A stretch of DNA of 24,000 bases from an uncultured Methanosarcinales archaeon (GTDB lineage Archaea > Nanobdellota > Nanobdellia > Woesearchaeales > ARS49), in NCBI GenBank assembly GCA_964617195.1, contig CAZTVK010000025.1, positions 1,436 through 25,435 of the forward strand. Direction: 5' to 3'. A program made the position numbers and the translations under genes. Positions 8,817 through 23,936 of this stretch are shown here, piece after piece. Below the pieces are notes generated by a model that did not search any database, was not told the origin of the DNA, and worked only from the letters and a program-made list of their open reading frames with translations. The first letter of the stretch is position 1; every line of letters begins with the position of its first letter.

Positions 8817-10046
8817 ATGGAAAGCTTTATAAACAGTGGAAAGAGAAACAAATCAATGGCGCCAGAACCAAATGAACAAAAAATAGTCATCACGCTAGAC
8901 CAGCTGCTTCTGGGCGTAAGAGAGAAAATCGGAGAGATAAAAGACGGGCTCATTCGAGCAGTCTCAGAAAAAGCATCACGAGGAACCACTGACTTCGGAG
9001 GAAAGGACGCATTTTTGGTAAGAGGATACTTTCCTGCGGATTACCTGCTAAACTCATCAAGCTACGTTCTTAAAACTCTCGAAGATGCAAGACATGATCC
9101 GTTGATAGAGGGACATGATAATTCTGAACTTCGAGGAAAAATAATGCGCCAAATCGAAGAAATAGCAAGAGACGTTTTTACGATACCTAAAGACATGACT
9201 TGGTCTGGCCTAGTTGATTTGAGCGAAAAATCCAGACGCCTCTACAAGGAAATGCTGCCAATAGTTGAGGAAAGCAGGCAGATCGATCACAGAACAGGCC
9301 TCAAAATATCTGACTATCTAACGAACTACTTATTCGAAAGCCTCAAACAATACCTCTCTCAACCCAACAAACACATCTCGATAGTATATCTTGATATGAA
9401 CAACTTCAAACTCTACAACGACATAGTAAAATCACACCAGGCAGACGTTGCAATCCAGCAAACAGCAGCACTCCTGAAGCAACTTCCAGAAGACGTTGTT
9501 GTAACAAGAAAAAACGACAAGAGAGGAGACGAATTCATGCTATTCATGCACAAAGATTATGACGGAGCAAGCAGAATCATGCATAAATTGTTTATTCCAC
9601 AATTTGACGAAAAACTTCCAGCCATGATCACGGCAGCAATGGAAAATAGTACGCAAAAATACGACGCCAACTTTGACAAGATGGGAGGAAAACTATCATT
9701 TGCAATAGGAATAAGTTCAACCTTGCTGCAGGACGGAACAACAATATTTGCAAGAGCAAGAAAAAGATTCGGGCAAACAGACGAAGAACTTTCAAGAGAA
9801 CTAGATTACTTCAATTCATGCGAGTCAGAAAAATGGCATGATAAATATGATAGTTTAAGTCCGGAAGTAAGAAAAAAAATACTCACGGCGCTCAAAGGAA
9901 CCTTGCAAGATGAAGCGGAAGCTGCGGCGCACTGGGCAAAAAACCTGTCAAAAGATAGGCATGAAAAAGAATTCTATGAAAAAACGGTTCTGCGGGCATA
10001 TGATCCAAAACTACCAGAATCAACTTATATTTACGTAGGACGATAA
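8817..10046 (+). CDS. GGDEF-like nucleotide cyclase domain protein with unknown N-terminal domain
   Basis: DHRTGL (DxLTGL), IVYLDMNNFKLYND (DxDxFKxxND), KSHQAD (in place of GHxxGD), KRGDEFMLFM (GGDEF position reads RGDEF), LSFAIGIS, and AEAAAHWAKNLSKDR (AD.ALY.AK..GRN). All are in the canonical order. Confidence 0.8.
   Translation: MESFINSGKRNKSMAPEPNEQKIVITLDQLLLGVREKIGEIKDGLIRAVSEKASRGTTDFGGKDAFLVRGYFPADYLLNSSSYVLKTLEDARHDPLIEGHDNSELRGKIMRQIEEIARDVFTIPKDMTWSGLVDLSEKSRRLYKEMLPIVEESRQIDHRTGLKISDYLTNYLFESLKQYLSQPNKHISIVYLDMNNFKLYNDIVKSHQADVAIQQTAALLKQLPEDVVVTRKNDKRGDEFMLFMHKDYDGASRIMHKLFIPQFDEKLPAMITAAMENSTQKYDANFDKMGGKLSFAIGISSTLLQDGTTIFARARKRFGQTDEELSRELDYFNSCESEKWHDKYDSLSPEVRKKILTALKGTLQDEAEAAAHWAKNLSKDRHEKEFYEKTVLRAYDPKLPESTYIYVGR
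9285..9971 (+). other. GGDEF-like (palm) domain within the 409-aa protein
   Basis: Covers about aa 157-385. The motifs listed for the CDS are all present. An insertion of about 60 aa lies between the SxGIS strand and the C-terminal A.AK helix. Confidence 0.65.
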
Positions 10047-10488: not shown

Positions 10489-11949
10489 TTAAAGGTTTCC
10501 TTCACCAACCTGCACTTTCACAGATTTGGCAACAGCAGCGCCAAGAAGCTCTGCCAATTTTTCAACAGATGCTTTCCTGATATCGCCCAAATCCTTGATT
10601 CCAGCACGGAACATTTTTCTTGCTCTCACACGTCCAATGCCTTCCAGCCTGATCAATGGCAAAAGCTCCTCTTTCACACCATACTTCAACCGTAACCTAA
10701 CTTTCATAATCTCTTTCAACAAATCCTGATACTGCATCAAACGAGCAAGCTCATGACAGCCATACAACAGCCAATCCGCATTATCGATTTTCGCCCTCGA
10801 CTCACCAGGCCTGCTATCATAACGTTCCAAAAGCCACTCTTCATCCTTCTCATCAATCCAATCCTCAAGCATCAATGCTGTTTTCAAACTGTCAAGCCAA
10901 TCCTCATACTCATGCTCAAACATGCTCGGCTCATGCTCCAGCAAATACGACTCTAACAACGCGTACTTCTGCTGGATCTCATCATACTCCTTCTGCTTCA
11001 CTCTAAGCAATGGGCGCATCTCCAACGTATTAGAAACCGCGTGCAAGAATGAAATGGACTTCAACTTGGTATGCGTCGCGCGCTCCAACCTGCCCAACAA
11101 ATTATGAGCAGTCAACGGGTCAAGATAAAGCTCAGCAACTCTCTTTCCTATGAGAGTTGCACGATAACCTTCCTGCACTTCCTGCAAGAAACCCCACTCG
11201 ACCAACAATTTCAACATTTTATCAATCACGCGCGACATCCTTTCAAGATCCTTATATTGATGCGCCCAAAAAGTCCGGCTGAAAAAATCAAGAATAGACT
11301 CATTAGAAGAAATAACACGGGAAGAAATCAAAGAAAGCAGATAAGTGCGAAGCACAGGCTCAACAGCCAACTTGCTGTAAATATCCTCAGGAACACCTTT
11401 CAAATAATGCTCAACAATGTATTCCTTATCAGACTCTGTCTGAGCAAGCACAATAGCCTCGCCAAACGTGTCATATTTAGGACGGCCAGCCCTTCCAGCC
11501 ATCTGCAAGAATTCAAGCACAGGAATATGCGCCATGCCATGCATGCCAAACCGTTTCACATCACGAATTATAGCGCGAAAAGCAGGCAAATCAACACCAG
11601 CTGCCAAAGTCGGAGTGCAACAAATAATTTTTACAACACCAGCGCGAAAAGCATCCTCAACCAACTCCTTTTGCTTTGAATGCAAGCCAGCATGATGAAA
11701 CGCAATGCCTTTCTTGACGCATAAAGCCAAACGCTCGCACTGCTTTGTAGGTTTTGAAAGAGCAGAACGAACACTCTCAGACAACTTGTCAAGCTCAGCA
11801 CTCTTCAACTCAGTCTTTTTGCTGATGTCCTCAGCAACTTTTTCAGCAGAACGCTTCGCGTTAACGAACACCAAAGCCTGCTTTTTGATTTCAATAGTAT
11901 CAAGCGCGACATTAATGACAGGATCACTCGTTTTTTCAGCTATTTTCAT
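10489..11949 (-). CDS. hel308: Hel308/Ski2-like helicase, C-terminal portion only (RecA2 + winged helix + ratchet + HhH)
   Basis: Helicase motifs IV-VI are present: ALVFVNAKR, CCTPTLAAGVDLPA, QMAGRAGRP. A Sec63/ratchet-like region and a C-terminal helix-hairpin-helix (LEGIGRVRARKMFRAGI) follow. There is no Walker A or DEAH, and the ORF begins where RecA2 starts. Confidence 0.88.
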   Translation of the reverse strand: MKIAEKTSDPVINVALDTIEIKKQALVFVNAKRSAEKVAEDISKKTELKSAELDKLSESVRSALSKPTKQCERLALCVKKGIAFHHAGLHSKQKELVEDAFRAGVVKIICCTPTLAAGVDLPAFRAIIRDVKRFGMHGMAHIPVLEFLQMAGRAGRPKYDTFGEAIVLAQTESDKEYIVEHYLKGVPEDIYSKLAVEPVLRTYLLSLISSRVISSNESILDFFSRTFWAHQYKDLERMSRVIDKMLKLLVEWGFLQEVQEGYRATLIGKRVAELYLDPLTAHNLLGRLERATHTKLKSISFLHAVSNTLEMRPLLRVKQKEYDEIQQKYALLESYLLEHEPSMFEHEYEDWLDSLKTALMLEDWIDEKDEEWLLERYDSRPGESRAKIDNADWLLYGCHELARLMQYQDLLKEIMKVRLRLKYGVKEELLPLIRLEGIGRVRARKMFRAGIKDLGDIRKASVEKLAELLGAAVAKSVKVQVGEGNL

Positions 11950-12160: not shown

Positions 12161-13249
12161 ATGGTAGAGATAGACATAGGACACAATTATGACCAGCGCG
12201 TAATCGATGGAATGTACGTAAAGTCCTCACGCTATTTCCGCCGCACACTAGACTCAGGGAAACCAAAAGTACTGGGACTTGAGAATTTGCTTTCAATTCC
12301 GCAAGACGCTTCTGCAGTTTTGGTATCAACACACAAAAGCCACTTGGATTATGTTGTTGTTCCCTGGGTGCTTAGAGAACACCAAACACCAAAAGGAGAA
12401 AGACCGCTAGCCATCGCAGCAGGCGACAACCTCTTCAAGCGAATCGCAAAATGGAATTTTGACAAATTTTTACGAACGTGCGGCGGGTACAAAATAATCA
12501 GGAAACCCCAGCCCGGCAAAAAAATAGCAACCACGGGAACACAACTCAACTACACTGCTGAACGCATGGAAGCAGCAGACTGGTTCCTAATATTTCCAGA
12601 ATGCGGCAGATCATACACAGGCGAAGTAATGCCATTTGACCCGGCAGCACTCGGAATATTCCAAAGAGCAGAAAAAAGATCTGAAAGAAAAGTCGTATAT
12701 GTTCCCACAACCATAGGATATGAACGCGTGCCAGAAGACAGATGGTTTACGGCATTCGCAAATTACAAATCATCAGTATCACACCTCAAAAAACTTCTTT
12801 ACTACGCTCTAGACTGGCCGCTAATCTTTGCACAACAGTACATCGGAATCTGGAACAAACCAATCGGGCAAATCGTCATCCGCTTCGGCACACCACTAAC
12901 CAGCTCGGAAGGAAACACACCTCTGAGCAAGGAAGATTTTGCGGCGCGCATGGAAAACGCCTGCAAATCAATAGTTCCTGCATTCTCAACAAACATTTTA
13001 GCCACAGCGCTCCTGCAATCTGAAAGTCCGGCACAACTAGGCCACAAAATTGCCGAAGTATACGATCATCTAAACCAGCGCGGAGTCATCGCGAATCCAG
13101 ACGAAAGAGATCACATACTGCGCGCAGCACGATTCCTAAGCGCTCCACTGAGAAATTTCTTCCATAACGGCGGCGCTTACGGAATAGGACGGATGGACAT
13201 CATCGAATATTACCGCAACTGCACCGCACACCATTTCAAGTCAACATGA
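12161..13249 (+). CDS. PlsB/GPAT-family glycerol-3-phosphate (or DHAP) acyltransferase-like protein
   Basis: All four GPAT/LPLAT blocks are in order: STHKSHLDYVVV (HxxxxD), CGGYKIIRK, IFPECGRSYTGE and VYVPTTIGYERV. These compare with E. coli PlsB HRSHMDY / GAFFIRR / FVEGGRSRTG / IGYEHV as I recall them. The ATG at 12161 is preceded by AGGTGGGTGG, and the track ATG at 12128 sits inside a TATA-like CTTTTAAATG. Confidence 0.82.
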   Translation: MVEIDIGHNYDQRVIDGMYVKSSRYFRRTLDSGKPKVLGLENLLSIPQDASAVLVSTHKSHLDYVVVPWVLREHQTPKGERPLAIAAGDNLFKRIAKWNFDKFLRTCGGYKIIRKPQPGKKIATTGTQLNYTAERMEAADWFLIFPECGRSYTGEVMPFDPAALGIFQRAEKRSERKVVYVPTTIGYERVPEDRWFTAFANYKSSVSHLKKLLYYALDWPLIFAQQYIGIWNKPIGQIVIRFGTPLTSSEGNTPLSKEDFAARMENACKSIVPAFSTNILATALLQSESPAQLGHKIAEVYDHLNQRGVIANPDERDHILRAARFLSAPLRNFFHNGGAYGIGRMDIIEYYRNCTAHHFKST

Positions 13250-15166
13250 AATGCTCTCTTCAGAATAAGCTCTCAGCAGCAAAACCAAATCACCAATTTC
13301 TAAAAGACCGTTCTTATTCATATCCAATTCAACAGGACAGAACGAAGTCAGTTCTTCAACATTACATTGCAAGTTCTCGCCAAAAAAGCCAGAGATCAAC
13401 AACACCAAATCACCAATATCAAACTCCTCATTATTGTTTCTGTCAAGATTCATAATGCAAGTCTGAGATGTGAAAGAAACAGAATCCTCGGCTGAAACAC
13501 TCTGCGAGTCCTCAGCTGAGAAAATAACAGTATGCTCTCCAGGAGCAAAAGGAACAGTAATCTGATTGCCAACGCCCAAGACAGCATCCTCTTCTTTCCA
13601 AGTGCCTGACAATTCACCATCCTCAACATCATCAGCAGAACCCTCAAGCGTAACAGGAGACTTAGCAGACCCACCAGGAGAAGTTATGCTCGCGCTCGGA
13701 GGATTATTACCAGCAGGAGGTGTAGGAACAGGAGACGGACTTGGTTCAGGTGATGGAGACGGCTCAGGAGAAGGCGATGGACTTGGAGATGGTTCGGGTG
13801 TAGGTATTGGACTCGGAGACGGACTTGGCTCAGGTGACGGGCTTGGAGATGGTTCAGGGGAAGGAGACGGAGGCGTCAATGATTGAACAGCAGCCAAAGC
13901 ATCAATGCGCTTGAAACCACTTATTGGAACGCCCGTATCCTGCATGATTTGTTTCATCTGATCAGGCGACAACTGCAAATTTAGTAATTCAGCATATTGG
14001 CTCAACAACGCAACCAAACCAGAAACATGAGGAGTTGACTGAGAAGTGCCAGATAGAGAACCATACAAATTATTCGCCTTTGTACTAATGATAGACGCGC
14101 CAGGAGCAAGAACATCAAGCAACGGCCCCCTGTTAGAAAAGCCCGCCATCAAATCACTCTTTGTAGTCGCGCCAACAGAAATAGAATTCGGACTGCAACC
14201 AGGATAACTCACGCCATTCGCATAACCATTATTGCCAGAAGCAAACACGGACACGATTCCCGCGTTATACGCGGCATCGATTGCTACATCAAAATAAGTC
14301 GGACACTGCGCCTGAGTCTGATAGTTTCCGCCATCACCAATACTGCCAGAAATCGCAACAATATCAAACTGGTCCTTCACCTGCAAACAATAATCAATAC
14401 CAGCAAAAATATCAGCCAAATTACAACCAGCATTGCAAACTTTCACAGCGACAATATTAACTCCAGGCGCAACACCCTTGTAAGCTGGACCATTTGCCGC
14501 AATAATTCCAGAAACGTGCGTTCCATGACTGACAGAATGAGTATCAGTAGCTAAAACATCAGTCGCCTGCCCATTAGGACAACAATTCGGATAACAAAAA
14601 CACTTCTGGTTTACAATACGATTCTGAAAATCAACATGAGGAGAAATTCCGGTATCAACCACGCAAACACTCCTGCCACTGCCATCAATATTTTGCGTTT
14701 GCCAAACATCATCAGCATTAATCAAAGGAACACTATCAAGTAAAGTAAGCTCGAACTGAAAATTTGGATAAACAGCCTCAACTAACGGATGAGATTCCAA
14801 CTCGGCAATGCCATCAGAAGTAGCCTCAACAACCATCGCAGGAACAATATCCAAAAACCTCTCAGCTTCAACATCAGGAGAATGCTCGATTCCAAACAAA
14901 CGCTCGAAAAAAGAAGGACTATTCACGTCATCCAAAACTTCCTGCTGCGCAATAGCAGTAGAAACTTTCAACTCATCCAAAGAAGACGATTCTTCACCAA
15001 AAGATAACGCGCCGGTTATCGCACTGCTAGACTGAGCTTTCAAAACAACCACAACAGTTTGCGGAAGCTCACTCGTCACTCCACCAGTAATATTCGGCTT
15101 ACCCCAAATGAGGAAAGAGAACAGAATCAACATTCCAAAAGCCAAAGCAATACGAACACGTTTCAT
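13241..15166 (-). CDS. secreted subtilisin-like serine protease (S8) with Pro/Ser linker, Ig-like domain and C-terminal dockerin
   Basis: Catalytic triad contexts VCVVDTGI (Asp), HGTHVSGIIAANG (His) and GTSQSTPHVSGLVALL (Ser). It has an N-terminal signal/anchor MKRVRIALAFGMLILFSFLIWG. The track start at 15175 is GTG, and the ATG is at 15166. Confidence 0.93.
   Translation of the reverse strand: MKRVRIALAFGMLILFSFLIWGKPNITGGVTSELPQTVVVVLKAQSSSAITGALSFGEESSSLDELKVSTAIAQQEVLDDVNSPSFFERLFGIEHSPDVEAERFLDIVPAMVVEATSDGIAELESHPLVEAVYPNFQFELTLLDSVPLINADDVWQTQNIDGSGRSVCVVDTGISPHVDFQNRIVNQKCFCYPNCCPNGQATDVLATDTHSVSHGTHVSGIIAANGPAYKGVAPGVNIVAVKVCNAGCNLADIFAGIDYCLQVKDQFDIVAISGSIGDGGNYQTQAQCPTYFDVAIDAAYNAGIVSVFASGNNGYANGVSYPGCSPNSISVGATTKSDLMAGFSNRGPLLDVLAPGASIISTKANNLYGSLSGTSQSTPHVSGLVALLSQYAELLNLQLSPDQMKQIMQDTGVPISGFKRIDALAAVQSLTPPSPSPEPSPSPSPEPSPSPSPIPTPEPSPSPSPSPEPSPSPEPSPSPVPTPPAGNNPPSASITSPGGSAKSPVTLEGSADDVEDGELSGTWKEEDAVLGVGNQITVPFAPGEHTVIFSAEDSQSVSAEDSVSFTSQTCIMNLDRNNNEEFDIGDLVLLISGFFGENLQCNVEELTSFCPVELDMNKNGLLEIGDLVLLLRAYSEESISC
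13244..13456 (-). other. dockerin module (two EF-hand-like Ca-binding repeats)
   Basis: DRNNNEEFDIGDLVLLISGFF and DMNKNGLLEIGDLVLLLRAY both fit the dockerin pattern D-x-N-x-(D/N)-x(3)-(D/E)-x-x-D plus a hydrophobic helix. They are separated by about 22 aa. Confidence 0.8.
13710..13874 (-). repeat. coding tandem repeat: (P-S-P-S-P-E)n-type Pro/Ser-rich linker
   Basis: PPSPSPEPSPSPSPEPSPSPSPIPTPEPSPSPSPSPEPSPSPEPSPSPVPTPP. The DNA shows imperfect 18/36-nt periodicity (ggagacggacttggYtcaggtgaY recurs). Confidence 0.85.
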
Positions 15167-15252
15167 AAAGATCACTCTTTTCTATATCTGAAACACGCAC
15201 TGCTTAAATGCTTTTCGAGAAGTATAATATAACAAAACGCGAATGCAACACC

Positions 15253-16287
15253 ATGAAATATGCATTATTGCTAATCTTGCTCGCAGGATGCGCGCAAACT
15301 CTCAACTTCACACAATGGGATGAAGGGCTGCCAAAAACAGGAGAATGGAGAACAAACCTGGCAGTAGGCGATGTGAATAACGACGGGCTTCTAGACATCG
15401 CAGGAATCGGCAGAAAAGGAACAGCCAGCGCATCAGTATGGCTGAACCAAGGCAACGGGAGCTGGGAGACTGCTGTTGACGGAATACAACAAAAAATGGA
15501 ATGCGGAGTAGGCATAGACTTTGGAGACGTCAACAACGACGGCAATCTGGACATCGCATACGGAAGGCACTGCGGAGGACCAACCATCTATCTAGGAGAC
15601 GGAAAAGGAAAATGGACAAACCACTCAACAGGATTACTGCCAGACAACGTCAACCCAATCGCGCTAGCAGACTTTGACAACGACGGACTGCTCGACGCAG
15701 CAACACTAGGAGCAGTCCTTGAAGGATTCACAATCTATCAAAACACAGGTGATACGTGGAAAGTAATGAATACAACTCTACCGGAAAAAACAGAATCATC
15801 CACATACCAAATAACAACTGGTGACATCAACACAGACGGAAAACAAGACATCATATCAGGAATCGGAATTTATCTGAACACAGATAAGTTCACATTCAAA
15901 AAAGATTTGGCGTTCACAGCTTCTTACATCGCGTACAAAGACAGCTTCATTGTAATAAGCGGACCAAAACAACTTCTTGTGTATAAACAAAAAAATGAAT
16001 TAGAGCCATACAGAAATCTAACTATTGCTTGTGAAAATGGAGGAGGAGTCGCCCTTGAAGACATAAATAATGATGAAAAAATAGACCTTGTCGCATCCTG
16101 CACCACAGGCATAAGAACATTCATAGGACCAAATTTTGACGAGATAAACAACAACATGCCAATAGCAGAAGCACGACCCCAAGGCCTGCAAATCGCAGAT
16201 GTCAACAATGATGGCAAGAAAGACATTATAGCAGCATTCGGACAAGAAGGAAGCATTGGCGGAATACAGGTATGGATACACACATGA
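15253..16287 (+). CDS. FG-GAP/VCBS-repeat (integrin-alpha-like beta-propeller) lipoprotein
   Basis: MKYALLLILLAGC|AQT is a lipobox signal. There are six Ca-loop repeats: GDVNNDGLLDIA, GDVNNDGNLDIA, ADFDNDGLLDAA, GDINTDGKQDII, EDINNDEKIDLV and ADVNNDGKKDII. Confidence 0.88.
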   Translation: MKYALLLILLAGCAQTLNFTQWDEGLPKTGEWRTNLAVGDVNNDGLLDIAGIGRKGTASASVWLNQGNGSWETAVDGIQQKMECGVGIDFGDVNNDGNLDIAYGRHCGGPTIYLGDGKGKWTNHSTGLLPDNVNPIALADFDNDGLLDAATLGAVLEGFTIYQNTGDTWKVMNTTLPEKTESSTYQITTGDINTDGKQDIISGIGIYLNTDKFTFKKDLAFTASYIAYKDSFIVISGPKQLLVYKQKNELEPYRNLTIACENGGGVALEDINNDEKIDLVASCTTGIRTFIGPNFDEINNNMPIAEARPQGLQIADVNNDGKKDIIAAFGQEGSIGGIQVWIHT

Positions 16288-16291
16288 AAAC

Positions 16292-16304
16292 GTTTATATA
16301 TAGG
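16292..16304 (+). promoter_or_regulatory. candidate TATA element for the 16365-22019 operon
   Basis: GTTTATATATAGG begins 73 nt upstream of the ATG. A GAGGTGG Shine-Dalgarno-like site lies at 16353-16359. Confidence 0.35.
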
Positions 16305-16364
16305 CAATTCAATAGTTGCATATAATTTGAATAGGAAAAGGGGAGTTATACAAGAGGTGGAACT

Positions 16365-18647
16365 ATGAGTCGAAAACAAATTTCTACAATATTTACAGCT
16401 ATACTATTATTGCTCAGTATGATTCCAGCTGTTATACCACACGGTATAATACTCGACCAAGGCACCCAAACAGCAGCACTCGTAGGAGACGTATTCGCAA
16501 TCGTTGATGAAGAAATATACGTACAATACCTAGGAGACGTGAATGCACGAATACACTACATATTCTACGACGATGAATGTGTAGAAGCCTCAAATGACGT
16601 AATAGACGTCACACCCTTACAAATAGTCCAAATCCCAGAACCAGTAGGTGAAGACAGAAAACTCGTAGTATTAGTAGAAGACACAACAGGAACAAGCCTT
16701 CTCAACCAGCCGCTCGCAGGAACAGTCTATGTCAACGGCAGAACAGCAGTCAAAAACATACCAGGACTCACAGCAACAAGCAACATCCAAGGTTCAACAA
16801 TATCAGCATCAGGAACCTTTAACGCAGACGGAGAAAGCTATGACGTATTCCCGCTAAACTTCATCCATTTGCCATTCCTAACAAACGGATCAAACTCGCC
16901 AAGCGTATTCAACAGCCTAGCGATAAACGTGTTCGACGCAACACCGCAACAAATAGGAACAATAGTATTCAATGATGCAGAAGACCCAGCGTCAAAAATA
17001 CTAAACGACGCGCTCTGCGCAGGACTTACAAACATTGCAATACCAGACCTGTTGTTCACAGACATCGGAGGATCAGGAATACAACAAGGAATCCCACCAG
17101 GAGTCCCTATTACTGACGCAGGAGTAGGAGCGATAATTTCGGACAGAACAGACGGAAGACTGCTAGTAGAATCAATTTTCTCTGACGGAGAAGACGCAGA
17201 CGCGCTATCAAACGTGTTCTACTTTGGAGACGGAGAATCAGCCTCTCTGTCATTCCTAACACTACCAGAACTACCAGGATCAGTGCCGCAAGGAATATTC
17301 ACGGGCAAAAACGAAAACTACCAAAACCCACGGCTTACAAGCGCACTGGCAAGCATAGGAATGCAAAAACCAATCGAGCCAGAAGGTCTAAACAACAACC
17401 AAGAACCATTGCCACCAAGCAACTTCAACGTAGACACAGTGTTCGCATTCTTCAACAACGGACCAGCAAGAACAGCAAAAGCAAGATTCGACTTCATATC
17501 ACTGGATCCAAACACATTCAATGAATGCAACCACAAAGACTTCAGCATAGAATTCACAGAAAGCGATGTTGAATACTTCCGAGTCAGCCAATTACTCGGA
17601 GTAAACTTACTGCCAGGAGACTCGCCAATAATCGGAGTCCTTACAGTATGGGACCCAGAAAAAGGAGAAACACTCGCAGGATACAGATGGGACGTCATAA
17701 TGGAAACACAACCAGCATGCAACGACGGAGTAGACAATGACAATGATGGAACAACTGATTTGGGAGACATTGACTGCATTGACGCAACAGACGACAGCGA
17801 AGATGACGCTCAGACCTTGACAGAAAGAGTAGACGAAATAAACGCAGTGCTAGACCAAGAAGTAATGCTGACACTAAACGCGAACTTCGAAAACGGAATC
17901 GCAAGCTTTGAAGCAGCAGAACACGCAACAACATACGTTCCAAGCCTCAACGTCTTCGACCCAGACGATTTCAACCTAGTGTACGTGAACTGGGACGCGC
18001 TTGACGACCCAGCAGCACTAGACCAAGTCTTAGACTTCCAAATAACAGACCAGTCAGAAAACACGAAATCAATACGAATACCAACAACAGAATGCATAAC
18101 ACTGCTTGACAAGCAAAGCTTCCCAGGACTATCAGACGGAAGCACGTTCGGAACAAACCCTGACGTTCTAAGCTACACAGGCAAGTTCGACCAGCCAAAC
18201 AGAGGACTCGCAGCATTCCTCTTATACAACAGAAACGGAATCTTCGCAACAGAAAACATAGATGCCATAGCAGACCTGGCATTCACCAACAACCACCACG
18301 ACGGAGAAATCTTTGCGGACATAAACGTCATGCCAGGCTCAGTCCCAGGACCAGGAGGAACATTCGTTGTTGAAGTAGGAATTACGCCATCAGTAACGCA
18401 AAACAATGTTAGCGTCACAGCAAGATGGTTTGCAGCAGTACCAGACGGAGCAGATCCGAGCAAGTTAGTCAGAGGACCGCTCATCTGCGAAGAAGAAGTA
18501 AACCATGACTTGGCAGCAGGAGAAGCCTTTGCTATCAAAGTTGCATGCCCGATTGACCCGCTAAGCATCGACGCCTTCCTAGAAGTTGAAAGCAGCCCAT
18601 TATCAGCAATGGGCCGGGTGTCGATATTCGTACCAAAAACAACATAG
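16365..18647 (+). CDS. large acidic secreted protein, unknown fold, with a Cys-flanked DNDNDG Ca-loop motif
   Basis: Signal peptide MSRKQISTIFTAILLLLSMIPAVIP, 760 aa, and very D/E/N/T-rich with few K/R. Contains CNDGVDNDNDGTTDLGDIDC at nt 17718-17776. No C-terminal anchor. Confidence 0.8.
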   Translation: MSRKQISTIFTAILLLLSMIPAVIPHGIILDQGTQTAALVGDVFAIVDEEIYVQYLGDVNARIHYIFYDDECVEASNDVIDVTPLQIVQIPEPVGEDRKLVVLVEDTTGTSLLNQPLAGTVYVNGRTAVKNIPGLTATSNIQGSTISASGTFNADGESYDVFPLNFIHLPFLTNGSNSPSVFNSLAINVFDATPQQIGTIVFNDAEDPASKILNDALCAGLTNIAIPDLLFTDIGGSGIQQGIPPGVPITDAGVGAIISDRTDGRLLVESIFSDGEDADALSNVFYFGDGESASLSFLTLPELPGSVPQGIFTGKNENYQNPRLTSALASIGMQKPIEPEGLNNNQEPLPPSNFNVDTVFAFFNNGPARTAKARFDFISLDPNTFNECNHKDFSIEFTESDVEYFRVSQLLGVNLLPGDSPIIGVLTVWDPEKGETLAGYRWDVIMETQPACNDGVDNDNDGTTDLGDIDCIDATDDSEDDAQTLTERVDEINAVLDQEVMLTLNANFENGIASFEAAEHATTYVPSLNVFDPDDFNLVYVNWDALDDPAALDQVLDFQITDQSENTKSIRIPTTECITLLDKQSFPGLSDGSTFGTNPDVLSYTGKFDQPNRGLAAFLLYNRNGIFATENIDAIADLAFTNNHHDGEIFADINVMPGSVPGPGGTFVVEVGITPSVTQNNVSVTARWFAAVPDGADPSKLVRGPLICEEEVNHDLAAGEAFAIKVACPIDPLSIDAFLEVESSPLSAMGRVSIFVPKTT

Positions 18648-18657
18648 GAGGGACTGA

Positions 18658-19707
18658 ATGAAGCCCTTTTTCTTTTTTCTTATCTTTTTGTTAGTCATAG
18701 GCAGCGCAAGCGCCACATTTCCAATAACGATAAACGGAAAAACAGTACCGAATTCAGCAAACACAGCAGACAAAACAGAAGCAGACCAAGCACAACTATT
18801 CTACCAAGGAAGAGTACAAGGATTCACACTCCCAACAGACCCTGACATTTCAAGCATAACAAGAGGAAGCATAGATTTCAAAAGAAACGGCAAAGCACCA
18901 CCAATCTCACAATTCTTCTTCTTTCCAATCGCAGCACCACTAAATGAGCCAACACAACAATCAGAAGGCCCAACCGGAGCGATAACTTACACAGTAGACG
19001 AAGGACCAGAAAAAGGACCAATAGTAGCGATGATACTCCTGATAACAATCATCACAGTATTCTTCGTGATAAGAATACAAGGAACCAAAATAAAAATAAT
19101 CCTTGCAGTAATCATACTCACAGCAGCATTATTTACCAGCGTAAAACTAACCAACACGCCAACAGCACTCCTAGTGCAAGAATATCCAGAATCCGTGCCG
19201 CAAGAAATAGCGCCAGCATCAGCGCACATCAACAACGCATTTACATTAACGTGGACGCATGGAGGACCAGTAACATTTTTCCCAGAAGGCGGAGCACCAG
19301 AATGCTCCGACGGAATAGACAATACAGACTTCGAAGACCTATTAGCAGACTGCGCAGACCCAGGATGCCATACAGACGGAAACGAAAGCAACCCGGGAAG
19401 CTGCGATCCAACAGACGACCTAGAACAAGACATGCTCGAATACGACCAAGCACCAGTCGTAGACAACCAAATAGACGTGTACGACACAGTCAACTGGGTA
19501 CAATACTTCAACGCAGACTCCAGCGTACTAGTCCACTGCACAGACACTGCCTGCAGCAACAACCCAGCAACAAACTGCGTAGGAGACGTCGACCCAAGCG
19601 GAGACTCAGCACTAACGGCAGCAGACCAAACATTCCTACAAACAAAACAACTAGCAGACACGGATAGCAGAACAGTAGCCGGAGGCTCAATCTGCTTCAA
19701 CACATGA
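18658..19707 (+). CDS. membrane protein with signal peptide, two central TM helices and a Cys-rich acidic C-terminal ectodomain
   Basis: GGAGG lies 6 nt upstream of the ATG. N-terminus is MKPFFFFLIFLLVIGSASA. TM helices are IVAMILLITIITVFFVI and IILAVIILTAALFTSV. Contains CSDGIDNTDFEDLLADCADPGC (nt 19303-19368) and a dockerin-like half-site DPSGDSALTAADQTFLQ. Confidence 0.75.
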   Translation: MKPFFFFLIFLLVIGSASATFPITINGKTVPNSANTADKTEADQAQLFYQGRVQGFTLPTDPDISSITRGSIDFKRNGKAPPISQFFFFPIAAPLNEPTQQSEGPTGAITYTVDEGPEKGPIVAMILLITIITVFFVIRIQGTKIKIILAVIILTAALFTSVKLTNTPTALLVQEYPESVPQEIAPASAHINNAFTLTWTHGGPVTFFPEGGAPECSDGIDNTDFEDLLADCADPGCHTDGNESNPGSCDPTDDLEQDMLEYDQAPVVDNQIDVYDTVNWVQYFNADSSVLVHCTDTACSNNPATNCVGDVDPSGDSALTAADQTFLQTKQLADTDSRTVAGGSICFNT

Positions 19708-22019
19708 AAACAATAACACTACTACTGATGCTGGCCCTAATCCTGCCTAGTGTCAGCGCCGCAATCACATTCTCACTAGCGCCAAGCACACAAGACGCAA
19801 ACCCAGGAGACACAGTAACAGTAGGACTATGGGCAAACAACGACCAAGCAATCTGGGGAACATCAGTCAAAGTAGACTTCAGCACAATCACTTACAGTTC
19901 AAGCACGTCAGGAACAGCAATCTCAGGAAGCCTCAATGGAGTATCACAAAATACGCCAACAAGAATCACACCATACGCGGTATTCGCAGGCAACACGCCA
20001 GGAATACCAGCAGGAAACAACAAATTGTTTGATTTGAAATTCACAATACCGCAAAACACGCAACCAGGACAATACCAGCTAACCCTAACACAACCAACAG
20101 CAAGCGACCAGAACGGAAATCCAGTGCAAGCGAGCTACGCAGGACCAGCAACAATAACACTACCAGGCCAACAGCCAGAGCCAACACCAGGAGAAACAGA
20201 GCTCTACCTCTCAGAAGTTTACGGACACATTGAAGAAATAGTGGACATACCAATATGCGTCACAAACACCCAGCCAGGAAAAACGCTCAAAAGCCTCAGC
20301 ATAAAAATCACAAACGACCAAAACATAGTCAGACCAACAGAAGTAGTCATAACACAAGGAAACGGAAACTACGAAGTACAGCCGGGAAGCACACAACTCA
20401 CAATTAACAACCTAAACATCCAAAACGCAGACTGCGAACAAGGAAGCGGAGCATATGTAGCATACCTACACTACCACCTACGAGCATTAGGAGTCAGCCC
20501 ATTACACTTCCAAAGCGCAAGCGCCACAGACCAAACAGCACAACCATTCAGCATACAAGCACTCGAAGCAGAAGACGGACAAATCACAGTAGGAACACCG
20601 CAAGTAACGAAACACTGCACGCCAAACCTCGGAATCATAGCCAAAGACCAAGCAGTCACGATCACATACAAAATATCAAACCCTGGAGAACCAACAACAA
20701 TATCAGACAACATCGGAGGAGTCTACAACGAAGACCTGTTTGACGACACAAACTTCAACCCAACAGTGCCACCAACAAACCTCCAAGCAGGAAGCACGCT
20801 CACGCACAGTTATTCCGGAGGCTCAGGCAAAATCGAAGTCGTCCAAACAGAAAGCCCACTGCCATTCCTAACCGGACCAGGAACGTTCAACATCTACTCA
20901 ATAATATACGATTCAATAGGAAGCATCCCAGTAGGAACGTACACTTTCAACTTCAACCCTCCACCACCACCAGCACTAGAAGTCAGCGACGAGTTCAGCA
21001 ACGACATGACAGCAGGCAAAGTCAGCTGCCAAGTTGAAGTCATCGAACAATGCAACGAAGACAGCGATTGCAATGACGGACAAGCATGCAATGGACAAGA
21101 AACCTGCGATGAAGGAGACTGCGTCCCAGGAACACCCCCAGACTGCAACGACGACAACCAATGCACCAATGACTTCTGCCAAGATCCAGGCGGATGCCAA
21201 CACACCCAAATACCAAACTGCGGCGGAGGACCAGGAGGAAAATCAGGCGGAGGAGGCACAAGCGGAGGCGGACAACAAACAGCATATGTCTGCGCGCAAT
21301 GCAATAACTCAGCATCCCCAGAATACGACAAGTGCTGCGGAATAAACCAAGACAACGCAGACAAATTCTGCAAAAAACCCACAGCATACAAACAATTCTG
21401 CGTATTATTCGGGCAATCAAAACCACCAGCAATAGAATTACCAGCCCAAAGAACAATCCCAGTACAACCAGAAGTGCAAACATCACAAGACACAACAGAA
21501 AGAAAAATCGAGCCACCAAAACAACACCTTATGGGAAAAGCAATTTCACAAGGAGAAACACAATCAGCCAAAGGACTAATGCCATGGATAATCGGAACAC
21601 TATTAGCCGTACTGCTTGTCATATTCGCAACTGCAGTAATGATAAGGCGCAGACCAGAACAAACTGAACAACAAGAATTACCAATACCAATCGGAATACG
21701 AACAGAAGAGCCAGAGCCACGTCAAGAGAGAATCAAAGAATTGACACGCGAAGAAATAGAATCAAAAATAAACAAAATAGCTCCAGAAGAAACACCTGAA
21801 ATCAAGGCAGAGCCGGCAATAATGAAAAAACCGGCAATTGACAAAAAACCAATTGCGTTGAAAAGACTGGCAGCAGTGAAACAACCAGAAAAGCCAAAAG
21901 CGCCAGCACAAAAAATATTCTACAAGCCAGTAACTCCAAAACCAATACAAGAAGTACCTCTAAACAAATACGAAGCAGAAGTCAGAAAGAAATTGGCAAA
22001 AGCAAGAAAGAAAAGATAA
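19704..22019 (+). CDS. membrane-anchored scaffoldin-like protein: two cohesin-like domains, Ig/CARDB-like domain, Cys-rich module, TM anchor, K/P/E-rich cytoplasmic tail
   Basis: The start overlaps the upstream stop (ATGA). Signal peptide is MKTITLLLMLALILPSVSA. Cohesin hallmarks are ANPGDTVTVGLWANNDQAIWGTSVKVDFSTITY and NKLFDLKFTIPQNTQPGQYQLTL. Cys-rich module is CNEDSDCNDGQACNGQETCDEGDCVPG...C, and the TM anchor is WIIGTLLAVLLVIFATAVMIRRR. Confidence 0.85.
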   Translation: MKTITLLLMLALILPSVSAAITFSLAPSTQDANPGDTVTVGLWANNDQAIWGTSVKVDFSTITYSSSTSGTAISGSLNGVSQNTPTRITPYAVFAGNTPGIPAGNNKLFDLKFTIPQNTQPGQYQLTLTQPTASDQNGNPVQASYAGPATITLPGQQPEPTPGETELYLSEVYGHIEEIVDIPICVTNTQPGKTLKSLSIKITNDQNIVRPTEVVITQGNGNYEVQPGSTQLTINNLNIQNADCEQGSGAYVAYLHYHLRALGVSPLHFQSASATDQTAQPFSIQALEAEDGQITVGTPQVTKHCTPNLGIIAKDQAVTITYKISNPGEPTTISDNIGGVYNEDLFDDTNFNPTVPPTNLQAGSTLTHSYSGGSGKIEVVQTESPLPFLTGPGTFNIYSIIYDSIGSIPVGTYTFNFNPPPPPALEVSDEFSNDMTAGKVSCQVEVIEQCNEDSDCNDGQACNGQETCDEGDCVPGTPPDCNDDNQCTNDFCQDPGGCQHTQIPNCGGGPGGKSGGGGTSGGGQQTAYVCAQCNNSASPEYDKCCGINQDNADKFCKKPTAYKQFCVLFGQSKPPAIELPAQRTIPVQPEVQTSQDTTERKIEPPKQHLMGKAISQGETQSAKGLMPWIIGTLLAVLLVIFATAVMIRRRPEQTEQQELPIPIGIRTEEPEPRQERIKELTREEIESKINKIAPEETPEIKAEPAIMKKPAIDKKPIALKRLAAVKQPEKPKAPAQKIFYKPVTPKPIQEVPLNKYEAEVRKKLAKARKKR
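19761..20162 (+). other. cohesin-like domain 1
   Basis: About aa 20-153, about 134 aa. The pattern PGDTVTV ... (I)WGTSVKVDF ... LFDLKFTI..PGQY.L.L ... G.ATITL aligns by eye to type-I cohesins (PGDTV.IPV ... GI...DF...YD ... F..I.F.V ... G.Y.I). Confidence 0.7.
20196..20591 (+). other. cohesin-like domain 2 (more divergent)
   Basis: About aa 165-296: LYLSEVYGHIEEIVDIPICVTNTQPGKTLKSLSIKITNDQNIVRP ... YVAYLHYHLRALGVSPLHF ... DGQITV. Same strand order and length as domain 1. Confidence 0.5.
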
Positions 22020-22037
22020 AGAAGATTCACTATAATT

Positions 22038-22337
22038 CTAACGAACCAATGCAGTTTGAACCATAGGAACGCCAACAAGAGAGTTACCTTGCTTGCACAA
22101 ACTCAACTGCGTGCCATACTCATTAGTGTACACGTGAATAGGATCTAACGGCTCAAGACCAGCATAAACGCAAGCCTCATCAGGAGCCAACTGAATTCTC
22201 TGAGGACCATAATACCAACGTCCGCCACCAGCAGCATAATACTGGCCAGTAAGCGTATCGCGAAGCTGAACAGTCAAACCGCCAATAGCAACAACTGCTA
22301 TAAAACCCAACAATACAAGACCGAGTTTATTCATCAT
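22038..22337 (-). CDS. small signal-anchored/secreted protein (99 aa), unknown function
   Basis: MMNKLGLVLLGFIAVVAIGGLTV is a hydrophobic N-terminus. Has two Cys and an ATG start. No family recognised. Confidence 0.55.
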   Translation of the reverse strand: MMNKLGLVLLGFIAVVAIGGLTVQLRDTLTGQYYAAGGGRWYYGPQRIQLAPDEACVYAGLEPLDPIHVYTNEYGTQLSLCKQGNSLVGVPMVQTALVR

Positions 22338-22798: not shown

Positions 22799-23902
22799 AT
22801 GTTAGTTCATAAGGCTTATCGGAAATTTTCAAAAGAACAAAAGTTAGTTCTCCTGACAAAAGAATACAACTTATCGGAGAAAGAAATTCTACGTATCAGA
22901 TCAATAGAAAATCCGAAGAAGAGGCTACTAGAAGCAGCCAAACTTCAATTTGAATGTTTGGGCGATATACACAATGATATTACGGCGTGGATTGCAGGTT
23001 ATTCCCAAGAAACATCAGTTAGGAGCGTTTTCGGAACGGCATTGGAATTAAGAAAGAATTTTGTCAAACTTCCAGAGAACATATCTTCATATTCCTGGAT
23101 GGATATAAAACGAAGAGTGAAAATTCCAACATGGTCGGAAGATTTAGCTGAAGAAACAGGAGTTCATTTAGGAGACGGATCGCTTCAAATAAACAAGTAT
23201 GGAAAATGGCAGAACTATGCGTACACGATCGATGGTCACTTAATCGACGACATGGCCTACTATGATTTCCACGTAATTCCATTAATTCAAAGATTGTACA
23301 ATCTTACTCCTAGAAAAAGAATCAATAAGGATCGTAATTCCTGTCAACTAGTAATAAAATCAAAAGCCGTTAGCATCTTCAAAAAGGAAATTCTAAAATT
23401 ACCCGTGGGAAATAAAATAGGTGCTAAAATCCCTAAGGAAATAATTGAAGATGATGTTTTTTCTAAAAAGTTTGTATGCGGGATGATCGATACTGATTTC
23501 ACAGTTACCAAAGATTTGCAAATTAGAGGCAGTTTAGTAAGTTTGAATGTAATTAAGGGAATGTCAGAGATTCTTGATAAACTGAATATGAATCATTATA
23601 TTCGAATAAAAGACGGTGTGGGCTACATAGTCATAAACAAGCCAGCATCGATCGAGCTACTGGAAGAAATTAAAAATCCTAAACATACTTCGAAATATCT
23701 TCTCTGGCAACGTTTTCATAAATACATTCCGTTTACATCAACAGTTGAACGATTGGCGGTTCTTGAAAACATTGTGCCTTTCGAAGATCTACTGAGATTG
23801 AGCGAAAAAAGAAAAAAAGCCCAGGCAAGCGCCCGGGCCTACGCCCCCGGTGAGAATTTCGGTGCTTTTAAAGCACACTCGAACTCACGACCTACTGATT
23901 AA
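22799..23902 (+). CDS. free-standing double-motif LAGLIDADG homing-endonuclease-like protein
   Basis: Two LAGLIDADG-type motifs about 100 aa apart: LAEETGVHLGDGSLQINKYG and KKFVCGMIDTDFTVTKD. An N-terminal extension of about 120 aa precedes them. The gene looks AT-richer and uses more T-ending codons than its neighbours. Its last 61 nt overlap tRNA-Asn on the opposite strand. Confidence 0.78.
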   Translation: MLVHKAYRKFSKEQKLVLLTKEYNLSEKEILRIRSIENPKKRLLEAAKLQFECLGDIHNDITAWIAGYSQETSVRSVFGTALELRKNFVKLPENISSYSWMDIKRRVKIPTWSEDLAEETGVHLGDGSLQINKYGKWQNYAYTIDGHLIDDMAYYDFHVIPLIQRLYNLTPRKRINKDRNSCQLVIKSKAVSIFKKEILKLPVGNKIGAKIPKEIIEDDVFSKKFVCGMIDTDFTVTKDLQIRGSLVSLNVIKGMSEILDKLNMNHYIRIKDGVGYIVINKPASIELLEEIKNPKHTSKYLLWQRFHKYIPFTSTVERLAVLENIVPFEDLLRLSEKRKKAQASARAYAPGENFGAFKAHSNSRPTD

Positions 23903-23936
23903 CAGTCAGTCGCTCTACCGGCTGAGCTACGGGGGC
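23842..23936 (-). tRNA. tRNA-Asn (anticodon GTT) with a 22-nt non-canonical insertion (intron) in the T-loop
   Basis: Minus strand reads GCCCCCG-TA-GCTC-AGCCGGTA-GAGC-G-ACTGA-CTGTTAA-TCAGT-AGGTC-GTGAG-[TTCGAGTGTGCTTTAAAAGCACCGAAATT]-CTCAC-CGGGGGC-G. Everything folds as a standard cloverleaf except that the T-loop is 29 nt instead of 7. Confidence 0.8.
23857..23878 (-). other. putative tRNA intron in the T-loop (boundaries +/- 2 nt)
   Basis: Removing about 22 nt (GTGTGCTTTAAAAGCACCGAAA or a register-shifted equivalent) restores a 7-nt T-loop, TTCGATT. The insert contains a GTGC-TTTAAAA-GCAC hairpin, and the flanking TTCG/CGAA can pair. Confidence 0.6.

Follow-up and report, generated by a model that had tools for sequence, protein, structure and literature searches.

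What joins five adjacent genes for exported proteins, among them a protease and a membrane protein with cohesin-like domains, in the genome of an uncultured archaeon? The question is raised by a stretch of 24,000 nucleotides (nt) from contig CAZTVK010000025.1, hereafter the window, in which an initial annotation had proposed a membrane-anchored scaffold that displays a subtilase, and possibly other proteins, on the cell surface. We conclude that the locus probably encodes a non-cellulosomal cohesin-dockerin tethering system of Woesearchaeota, in which predicted cohesin-dockerin binding would hold a protease on the cell surface. The arrangement is not due to chance, as it recurs in many related contigs, and this gene-neighborhood (phyletic) pattern is the strongest line of evidence. 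The five open reading frames (ORFs), all found where the initial annotation had placed them, are as follows.

13241-15166, minus strand: subtilase (S8) gene, 641 amino acids (aa), identified by Pfam Peptidase_S8, with its start read from the DNA

15253-16287, plus strand: FG-GAP beta-propeller lipoprotein, 344 aa, with a likely start at ATG 15253 in an ORF that extends from 15208

16365-18647, plus strand: 760-aa exported protein, the first gene of the operon, with its own TATA-like box and ribosome-binding site

18658-19707, plus strand: 349-aa membrane protein, recognized from hydropathy, a family alignment and about 18 ortholog clusters

19704-22019, plus strand: 771-aa type-I membrane scaffold, consisting of a signal peptide, modules D1, D2 and D3, a Cys-rich stalk, a transmembrane (TM) helix and a cytoplasmic tail

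A hydrophobic signal or anchor stands at the N-terminus of every one of the five products, in keeping with the export first ascribed to them. Genes for an ATP-dependent DNA ligase, a Hel308-type helicase, FtsZ and a diphthine-synthase-like methylase mark the window as archaeal, and close relatives of the studied proteins are labelled "Candidatus Woesearchaeota archaeon"; the earlier label "DPANN-like" is thus reasonable. The operon junctions described earlier could both be read from the DNA. The 760-aa and 349-aa genes meet at 18645-18660 as TAG-GAGGGACTGA-ATG, with GGAGG inside the 10-nt gap, and the stop codon of the 349-aa gene overlaps the ATG of the 771-aa gene as ATGA at 19704-19707, which implies translational coupling of the latter two genes.

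The cohesins of this system lie in the scaffold protein, whose parts, all on the plus strand, are these.

19761-20174, plus strand: D1, a definite cohesin, residues 20-157, from Pfam Cohesin and PDB profile matches

20193-20603, plus strand: D2, a probable divergent cohesin-like module, residues 164-300, from Pfam Cohesin matches in orthologs

20601-21047, plus strand: D3, a cohesin-like module, residues 300-448, from its hhalign match to the D1 family

21048-21428, plus strand: Cys-rich stalk, made up of a Dicty_CTDC-like repeat, a Gly-rich stretch and a second Cys-rich segment

21588-22016, plus strand: TM helix (residues 629-647), RRR and a 121-aa cytoplasmic tail rich in Lys, Glu and Pro, from hydropathy, composition and the family alignment

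Judged by sequence comparison, D1 is certain as a cohesin, D3 probable and D2 possible. D1 reaches 25.6 bits with Pfam Cohesin (PF00963; gathering cutoff 24.1) over residues 28-142. A 7-sequence profile of its family finds the PDB chain 5n5p_A at E 6.8e-10, and a 13-sequence profile finds the same chain at 7.5e-13, followed by 2xdh_A (1.4e-7; PDB 2XDH is the Archaeoglobus fulgidus cohesin), 4ums_A (4.9e-5) and about 15 more cohesins with weaker E-values of 0.0035 to 0.5 (5m2o_A at 0.0035). The D3 family profile aligns with that of D1 over 132 columns (hhalign probability 90%, E 1.7e-6; 41% with smaller profiles), and Pfam Cohesin is matched by one of seven D3 orthologs at E 0.078, with no Pfam match to D3 in the window sequence itself. 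For D2, two of seven orthologs match Pfam Cohesin (best E 2.7e-4) and three of the top four PDB matches of its profile are CipA cohesins (1ohz_A, 1anu_A and 2ccl_A), at E of about 0.3 only; hhalign of D2 against D1 was negative. The initial annotation had described a type-I membrane protein with two cohesin-like domains and a charged tail. Topology and tail (121 aa) stand, but the modules probably number three.

The stalk matches Pfam Dicty_CTDC at E 4.8e-5. Its repeat is abundant in proteins of Myxococcota and Planctomycetota, and a contig scan with the full 771-aa alignment, which keyed on the stalk, returned only repeat proteins of these two phyla and no orthologs. At the other side of the membrane, the cytoplasmic tail ends in a conserved motif, KYEAEVRKKLAK. 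The conserved basic end of the tail, KYEAEVRKKLAKARKKR (tail at window 21654-22016, plus strand), has a counterpart ending in ...IKKRLAKRK in the two-module proteins of loci L101 and L102, which share with the window scaffold a TM helix of the PWIIG type and the RLAKRK ending. The basic motif is absent from P0007 and short or different in one-module proteins; its conservation hints at a partner inside the cell in some lineages. Over the scaffold gene (window 19000-22000) the AT skew is strongly positive (0.41-0.54), which we assume to be due to coding rich in Thr, Pro, Gln, Asn and Lys.

The presumed cargo is the subtilase. Its ORF reaches back to GTG 15175, with ATG 15166 as the likely true start, and its parts are, in order, an N-terminal signal or anchor, a weak I9-like propeptide (Pfam I9, E 0.2), the catalytic domain (Peptidase_S8, E 3.7e-45), a linker rich in Pro and Ser, an immunoglobulin (Ig)-like domain and a dockerin-like module. 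The catalytic triad is intact: D171 (DTG), H214 (HGTH) and S375 (GTSQS). The terminal module is the feature on which the tethering of the enzyme would depend.

13244-13480, minus strand: dockerin-like module that makes up the last 79 aa of the subtilase, with two F-hand repeats and four conserved Cys

The module contains two 12-residue Ca loops, DRNNNEEFDIGD and DMNKNGLLEIGD, spaced by 40 residues and each followed by LVLL, with the patterns D-x-N-x-N-x-x-F-D-I-G-D and D-x-N-x-N-G-x-L-E-I-G-D. Both loops and the helix after each are kept in every orthologous subtilase. No incoming E-helix precedes loop 1, and there is no space for one, since a conserved Cys lies 4 residues upstream, just past the last Ig-like strand. 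In agreement with this layout, an AlphaFold2 model built from 12 sequences (predicted local distance difference test, pLDDT, 78.8; predicted template-modeling score 0.67) has helices at residues 22-33 and 62-73 only, each after a loop. A word-indexed homolog search with the subtilase C-terminus found 2 fragments only, and an exhaustive HMMER search with a profile, covering 1.84 billion representative proteins, was used instead. Its 24 matches at E ≤ 1e-3 consist of C-termini from subtilase orthologs and of dockerin-type repeat proteins. Pfam Dockerin_1 includes 8 of the 10 non-orthologous matches that were scanned (E 2e-33 to 6e-4). No calmodulin-type protein was returned, despite the abundance of EF-hand proteins. 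When the module model was compared with the PDB by Foldseek, the best 20 matches were all dockerins, with EF-hand proteins ranked lower. A metagenome scan with alignment A12 gave no match. The initial annotation had spoken of a two-repeat dockerin. The two loop-plus-helix repeats are indeed present and homology to Dockerin_1 proteins is found transitively, but of the Pfam families named at the time, Cohesin, Peptidase_S8 and FG-GAP were matched and Dockerin_1 was not matched by the subtilase module. We call the module "dockerin-like", as it has the repeat architecture and the transitive homology and fails the threshold of the curated hidden Markov model (HMM).

One of the HMMER matches, P0117 (525 aa), is an archaeal-looking surface protein with CARDB domains and a compact terminal double repeat, CDFNHNGMLDIGDVVLLLK ... 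CDLNHNGMIDIGDVVLLLK, which Pfam Dockerin_1 misses as well. Thus, this 'IGDxVLLL' flavor of dockerin also occurs on proteins that are not proteases.

Related loci were gathered through the 771-aa and 349-aa families, the divergent dockerin-subtilases and a neighboring gene for a protein of about 100 aa (p100), and were mapped with local HMMs. In 13 Woesearchaeota loci (window/L005, L094, L092, L090, L006, L096, L098, L100 and L101-L105), the immediate neighbor of a cohesin-TM gene or operon is a dockerin-subtilase gene. The arrangements differ in the number of scaffold modules and in the genes that accompany the pair.

L098/99, L103, L104, L105 and L100 (truncated): signal peptide, D1, Ser/Gly linker and TM helix; dockerin-subtilase adjacent; no other genes

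L096/97: two D1-like modules and TM helix; dockerin-subtilase adjacent; no other genes

L101 and L102: D1, D2 and TM helix; dockerin-subtilase adjacent; no other genes

L006/07: D1-D2-D3; dockerin-subtilase adjacent; a 224-aa 349-like gene

L092: D1-D2-D3; dockerin-subtilase adjacent; 349-like and 760-like genes

Window/L005, L090 and L094: D1-D2-D3; dockerin-subtilase adjacent; 349-like, 760-like and FG-GAP genes

L001/L108: D1-D2-D3; no adjacent dockerin-subtilase, with two Cys-rich lipoproteins instead; 349-like and 760-like genes

L109, L110 and L112: no cohesin; no dockerin-subtilase within about 10 kb; p100 only

Recurrence in relatives, which the initial annotation had left to be checked, is thus found in many contigs, and the full five-gene order is found in L090 and L094. 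L112 reads p100, FA_synthesis, Na_Ca_ex, Hel308, and L098 reads p100, cohesin, S8, FA_synthesis, Hel308, which indicates that the cohesin-subtilase pair comes or goes as a unit within a conserved frame. The core of the earlier proposal, a membrane-anchored scaffold that displays the subtilase, is therefore supported by cohesin homology, by the motif, transitive homology and fold ranking of the dockerin-like module, and above all by the fact that the two genes are present or absent together. In the L001 lineage, the place of the subtilase (L001 2-3105, minus strand) is taken by two paralogous Cys-rich lipoproteins of 491 and 517 aa, in which neither a Pfam match nor a dockerin-like module was found.

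The alternative that survives best, though we regard it as unlikely, is that these genes are neighbors with no physical link between their products. The cohesin-like modules would then be generic Ig-like domains of an adhesin or surface coat, the subtilase module would be an EF-hand-type domain that stabilizes the enzyme, senses Ca or binds some other ligand, and the adjacency would be synteny inherited within a narrow clade. Several results speak for this alternative or otherwise weigh against the tethering model. Pfam Dockerin_1 does not match the window module at E ≤ 10, and the only Pfam families that do are those of EF-hands, weakly; one subtilase ortholog matches Dockerin_1 at E 0.025, below the cutoff. 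A profile of 7 orthologs searched against PDB sequences scores troponin C (E 1.3e-4) above the best dockerin, 5m2o_B (0.0024). Most of the non-orthologous HMMER matches align to a single repeat only. The Foldseek matches have E-values of 0.3-2.5 and TM-scores of 0.39-0.58, none of them significant, so that their support for a dockerin fold is one of ranking only. On the scaffold side, the D2 sequence of the window has no significant link to cohesins. The whole neighborhood is strongly syntenic among relatives, which makes adjacency alone weak evidence, and the L001/L108 lineage retains a three-module scaffold without an adjacent subtilase. Other observations speak against the absence of a link. 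Loop 1 leaves no space before it for an incoming E-helix, and the library-wide search retrieved dockerin proteins rather than EF-hand proteins. The pair has been kept while the operon around it was rebuilt, with one to three modules and a varying set of 349-like, 760-like and FG-GAP genes, and there are loci in which the syntenic frame contains neither gene of the pair. On balance, we favor surface tethering.

If the tethering model is right, the 771-aa scaffold would sit in the cytoplasmic membrane by its one C-terminal TM helix and hold out two or three cohesin-type beta-sandwich modules on its Cys-rich stalk. The subtilase would be exported as a pre-pro-enzyme, and removal of the N-terminal signal and propeptide would leave the enzyme free to diffuse. 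Binding of its dockerin-like module, with two Ca-binding F-hands, to a cohesin, most likely D1, would then retain the active protease on the surface.

A second interaction may be built into the same operon. The 349-aa protein consists of a signal peptide, an N-terminal ectodomain segment, a TM hairpin (residues 122-165) and a conserved extracellular C-terminal domain, the last of which contains the following module.

19420-19704, plus strand: C-terminal, divergent dockerin-like module of the 349-aa protein (about 95 aa), DNQIDVYDTVNW ... DVDPSGDSALTAADQTFLQ ... C

Loop 2 of this module has the canonical 1-3-5-12 spacing and loop 1 is degenerate. Aligned with the subtilase module, it gives an hhalign probability of 70.6% (E 3.9e-5, 71 columns), and the two module families are the sole reciprocal HMM matches among the 2192 ORFs of the related loci. 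Against PDB sequences it had no match. A further point against our interpretation is that the AlphaFold2 model of the C-terminal domain, from a 17-sequence alignment, was unusable (pLDDT 49.6), so that the assignment of a second, divergent dockerin-like module to this C-terminus rests on sequence. The initial annotation had taken a different part of the protein, its Cys-flanked DxDxDG loop, for a dockerin-like half-site; that loop does not qualify, and the full module at the C-terminus had been missed. In the loci surveyed, a 349-like gene accompanies every D3-bearing scaffold and no other, from which we infer a pairing of D1 with the subtilase and of D3 with the 349-aa protein. The 349-aa module would thus most likely bind D3 to form a membrane heteromer, and the coupling by ATGA suggests that this heteromer of the 349-aa and 771-aa proteins is stoichiometric.

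It is possible to carry this idea further, although we would not give it much weight. The system may have grown stepwise into a 'proteasosome', beginning with the minimal pair, proceeding through module duplication and the addition of a second orthogonal pair (D3 and the 349-aa protein), and ending with a tail (...KYEAxxRKxLAK) that relays the occupancy of the scaffold inward. If true, the system would be the first cohesin-dockerin complex to span the membrane and have an intracellular output, and also a defined DPANN surface machine, possibly one that acts on host or prey surfaces.

A less probable alternative to surface display, and one to which we attach little credence, is that the protease is a dedicated processing enzyme that docks in order to recognize its substrate, for example to cleave the stalk or linker of the scaffold or to cleave or mature the 349-aa and 760-aa proteins. 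Such an enzyme would resemble dedicated maturation subtilases encoded next to their substrates. In all variants, the subtilase gene forms a tight, divergent pair with that of the scaffold, the long low-complexity linkers of the scaffolds, rich in Ser, Gly, Pro and Thr, would be accessible to a protease, and the best NCBIfam likeness of the catalytic domain, far below the cutoff, is to mycosin-type secretion-associated subtilases. However, neither a cleavage motif nor a conserved processing site was found, and the minimal systems, which consist of cohesin, linker and TM helix alone, offer little to mature. Processing of this kind would, moreover, still require contact between cohesin and dockerin and is hence a variant of the tethering model.

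The two remaining genes of the locus fit the system less closely. The FG-GAP protein next to the subtilase is, as first described, a divergently transcribed propeller lipoprotein: FG-GAP_3 matches it in 6 stretches (E 1.9e-31) and FG-GAP at E 5e-13, and from ATG 15253 its N-terminus reads MKYALLLILLAGC, with the lipobox LLAGC and a TATA-like box about 25 nt upstream. Its Dockerin_1 match (E 0.14) was rejected as a cross-match of the propeller Ca loop. The 760-aa protein has no Pfam or PDB match, and HMM searches found no cohesin-like or dockerin-like module in either protein at E ≤ 1. FG-GAP orthologs are confined to L090 and L094, which makes three lineages with the window, and the 760-aa gene is found neither in L006 nor in any one-module or two-module system. 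Both genes are late, lineage-restricted accessory additions, and their membership in the system is one of adjacency or operon position only, since they lack a cohesin or dockerin module and occur in a subset of lineages. The earlier suggestion that other proteins might also be displayed on the scaffold may thus hold for the 349-aa protein, which has a dockerin-like module, but is not supported for these two.

The Cys-flanked acidic loops that had been read as dockerin-like half-sites in the 760-aa and 349-aa proteins do exist and are probably of another kind.

17712-17783, plus strand: acidic double-disulfide repeat in the 760-aa protein, CNDGVDNDNDGTTD...DC, residues 450-473, NCBIfam NF033662 at E 5.3e-5

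19294-19380, plus strand: acidic double-disulfide repeat in the 349-aa protein, CSDGIDNTDFEDLLADCADPGC, residues 213-241, NCBIfam NF033662 at E 4.7e-5

NF033662 (of the CxDGxDNDxDGxxDCxDxxC type) is matched by a single copy in each protein, and each copy scores 23 bits against a cutoff of 41 that was set for multi-repeat proteins. In the 760-aa family the repeat is a variable insert, missing in two of six orthologs (L092 and L004), and the motif of the 349-aa protein is common to many unrelated bacterial surface proteins. The DNDNDG/Cys loops were thus rejected as dockerin half-sites, as they match NF033662 and the 760-aa copy is dispensable.

These results leave little room for the fullest form of the initial proposal, in which all five genes form a host-attachment or host-surface-processing apparatus of an episymbiont, with the FG-GAP and 760-aa proteins docking too: all products are exported or membrane-bound, the 760-aa gene lies inside the operon at a 10-nt gap and the five-gene order is seen again in L090 and L094, but neither protein has a docking module, the acidic repeat of the 760-aa family is dispensable and both genes have the narrow distribution described above. 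We think this version improbable and a host-attachment role pure speculation.

How does the tethering model compare with known systems? Cellulosomal type-I pairs are among the closest. In those of C. thermocellum (CipA cohesin 2 with the Xyn10B dockerin; 1OHZ, 2CCL) and R. flavefaciens (ScaB cohesins with group-1 dockerins; 5M2O, 5M2S, 5N5P), the cohesin beta-sandwich is homologous to D1 and the dockerin, like the subtilase module, has about 70-80 aa and two Ca-loop-plus-helix repeats; 2ccl_B and 1ohz_B align over both. The repeats of the subtilase module are near-identical, with IGDLVLL in each, as they are in dockerins with a dual binding mode. Canonical type-I dockerins have a loop spacing of about 34 residues and Ser-Thr at positions 10-11, whereas the module described here has a spacing of 40 residues, four conserved Cys and Ile-Gly at positions 10-11, and misses the Dockerin_1 threshold. 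In contrast to the cellulosomal pairs, the cargo is a protease and the host organism an archaeon, and searches of the five proteins with Pfam and NCBIfam found no glycoside hydrolase or carbohydrate-binding module. The locus is therefore not a cellulosome.

The scaffold can be likened to anchoring scaffoldins, such as the S-layer homology (SLH) domain proteins SdbA and OlpB and the sortase-anchored ScaE. As in these, a linker that bears one or a few cohesins would fix dockerin-bearing proteins to the surface, but the anchor is a single C-terminal TM helix with a partly conserved cytoplasmic tail rather than an SLH domain or sortase signal. An anchor of this type would suit the wall-less archaeal envelope and would be the equivalent of the SLH-anchored and sortase-anchored scaffoldins. 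The principle of surface anchoring by scaffoldins has been described (PMC9012536).

Archaeal cohesins and dockerins as such are known. Non-cellulosomal modules of both kinds were reportedly described in Archaeoglobus fulgidus by Bayer in 1999 and by Peer and colleagues in 2009, and in this archaeon and in anaerobic methanotrophic (ANME) archaea, as in the window, cohesins and dockerins are unrelated to cellulose degradation. The scaffoldin-like proteins of ANME archaea have up to 5 cohesins, with dockerin-bearing cargo (Chadwick et al. 2022, PMC9012536); this cargo commonly consists of ABC-transporter substrate-binding proteins, and the scaffoldin-like proteins bear a dockerin of their own (PMC9012536). 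The Woesearchaeota system differs in its TM-anchored scaffold, its S8 protease cargo encoded next door and a membrane protein from the scaffold operon that bears a second dockerin-like module. A dockerin used as the targeting device of a serine protease has a precedent in C. thermocellum Clo1313_0689 (8X39, 8X3A), chains of which are among the Foldseek matches of the subtilase module model; that protein, however, is a double-dockerin part of a bacterial cellulosome with no dedicated, adjacent gene for a TM-anchored cohesin. No description of a cohesin-dockerin system of this kind in DPANN archaea or Woesearchaeota was found in the searchable literature, in line with the statement in the initial annotation that it could not be matched to a described system. 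Four features set the locus apart: a TM anchor with a cytoplasmic tail, a dedicated and divergently transcribed gene for the protease cargo, a Cys-stabilized Ile-Gly subtype of dockerin and a second dockerin-like module in the operon. The system is a real, conserved and undescribed variant of a known, non-cellulosomal kind, with the binding predicted.

Several features of the surroundings deserve mention. The p100 gene (window 22038-22337, minus strand) is convergent with the scaffold gene and encodes a protein whose N-terminal TM helix is accompanied by two conserved Cys and an invariant QxxPDEAC. Its conservation extends to all related loci, even those without cohesin and subtilase genes; p100 was for this reason ruled out as a component and is a syntenic neighbor outside the system. 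A GGDEF protein of the diguanylate-cyclase type is encoded at window 8817-10046 (plus strand; Pfam E 6.2e-8), with a counterpart at L098 8818-9858; cyclic di-GMP signaling domains are uncommon in archaea. The Hel308-type helicase ORF (window 10489-11949, minus strand) has only 486 aa; the earliest Pfam match along it, to Helicase_C, spans residues 79-157, and no DEAD/RecA1 domain is seen by Pfam in this ORF. Its orthologs in L090, L092, L094, L098 and L112 are equally short (481-494 aa), and the gene may encode a split or N-terminally reduced helicase. An Rfam tRNA match of 35.2 bits at window 23874-23936 (minus strand), not called by ARAGORN, overlaps the 3' end of a 367-aa ORF (22799-23902) that has no Pfam match; in L001 and L096 the gene at the equivalent position is LAGLIDADG-like.

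Cohesin-dockerin recognition is a standard example of modular extracellular assembly, and the cargo and purpose of its non-cellulosomal forms are mostly unknown. The Woesearchaeota loci offer a very small natural system, in which two genes supply a single TM-anchored cohesin and a single protease with a dockerin tag, together with a clear evolutionary series from one to three modules and a candidate for a second orthogonal pair. Short recombinant modules would be enough for a direct test of the predictions, and, if the pairs bind, they would provide new orthogonal, disulfide-stabilized cohesin-dockerin specificities for protein engineering. Woesearchaeota are uncultured DPANN archaea whose surface biology, including any interaction with hosts, is largely uncharacterized, and a protease retained at the surface might serve in feeding or in such an interaction. 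If the pairs bind as predicted, a surface-displayed protease would be a conserved trait of this Woesearchaeota lineage.

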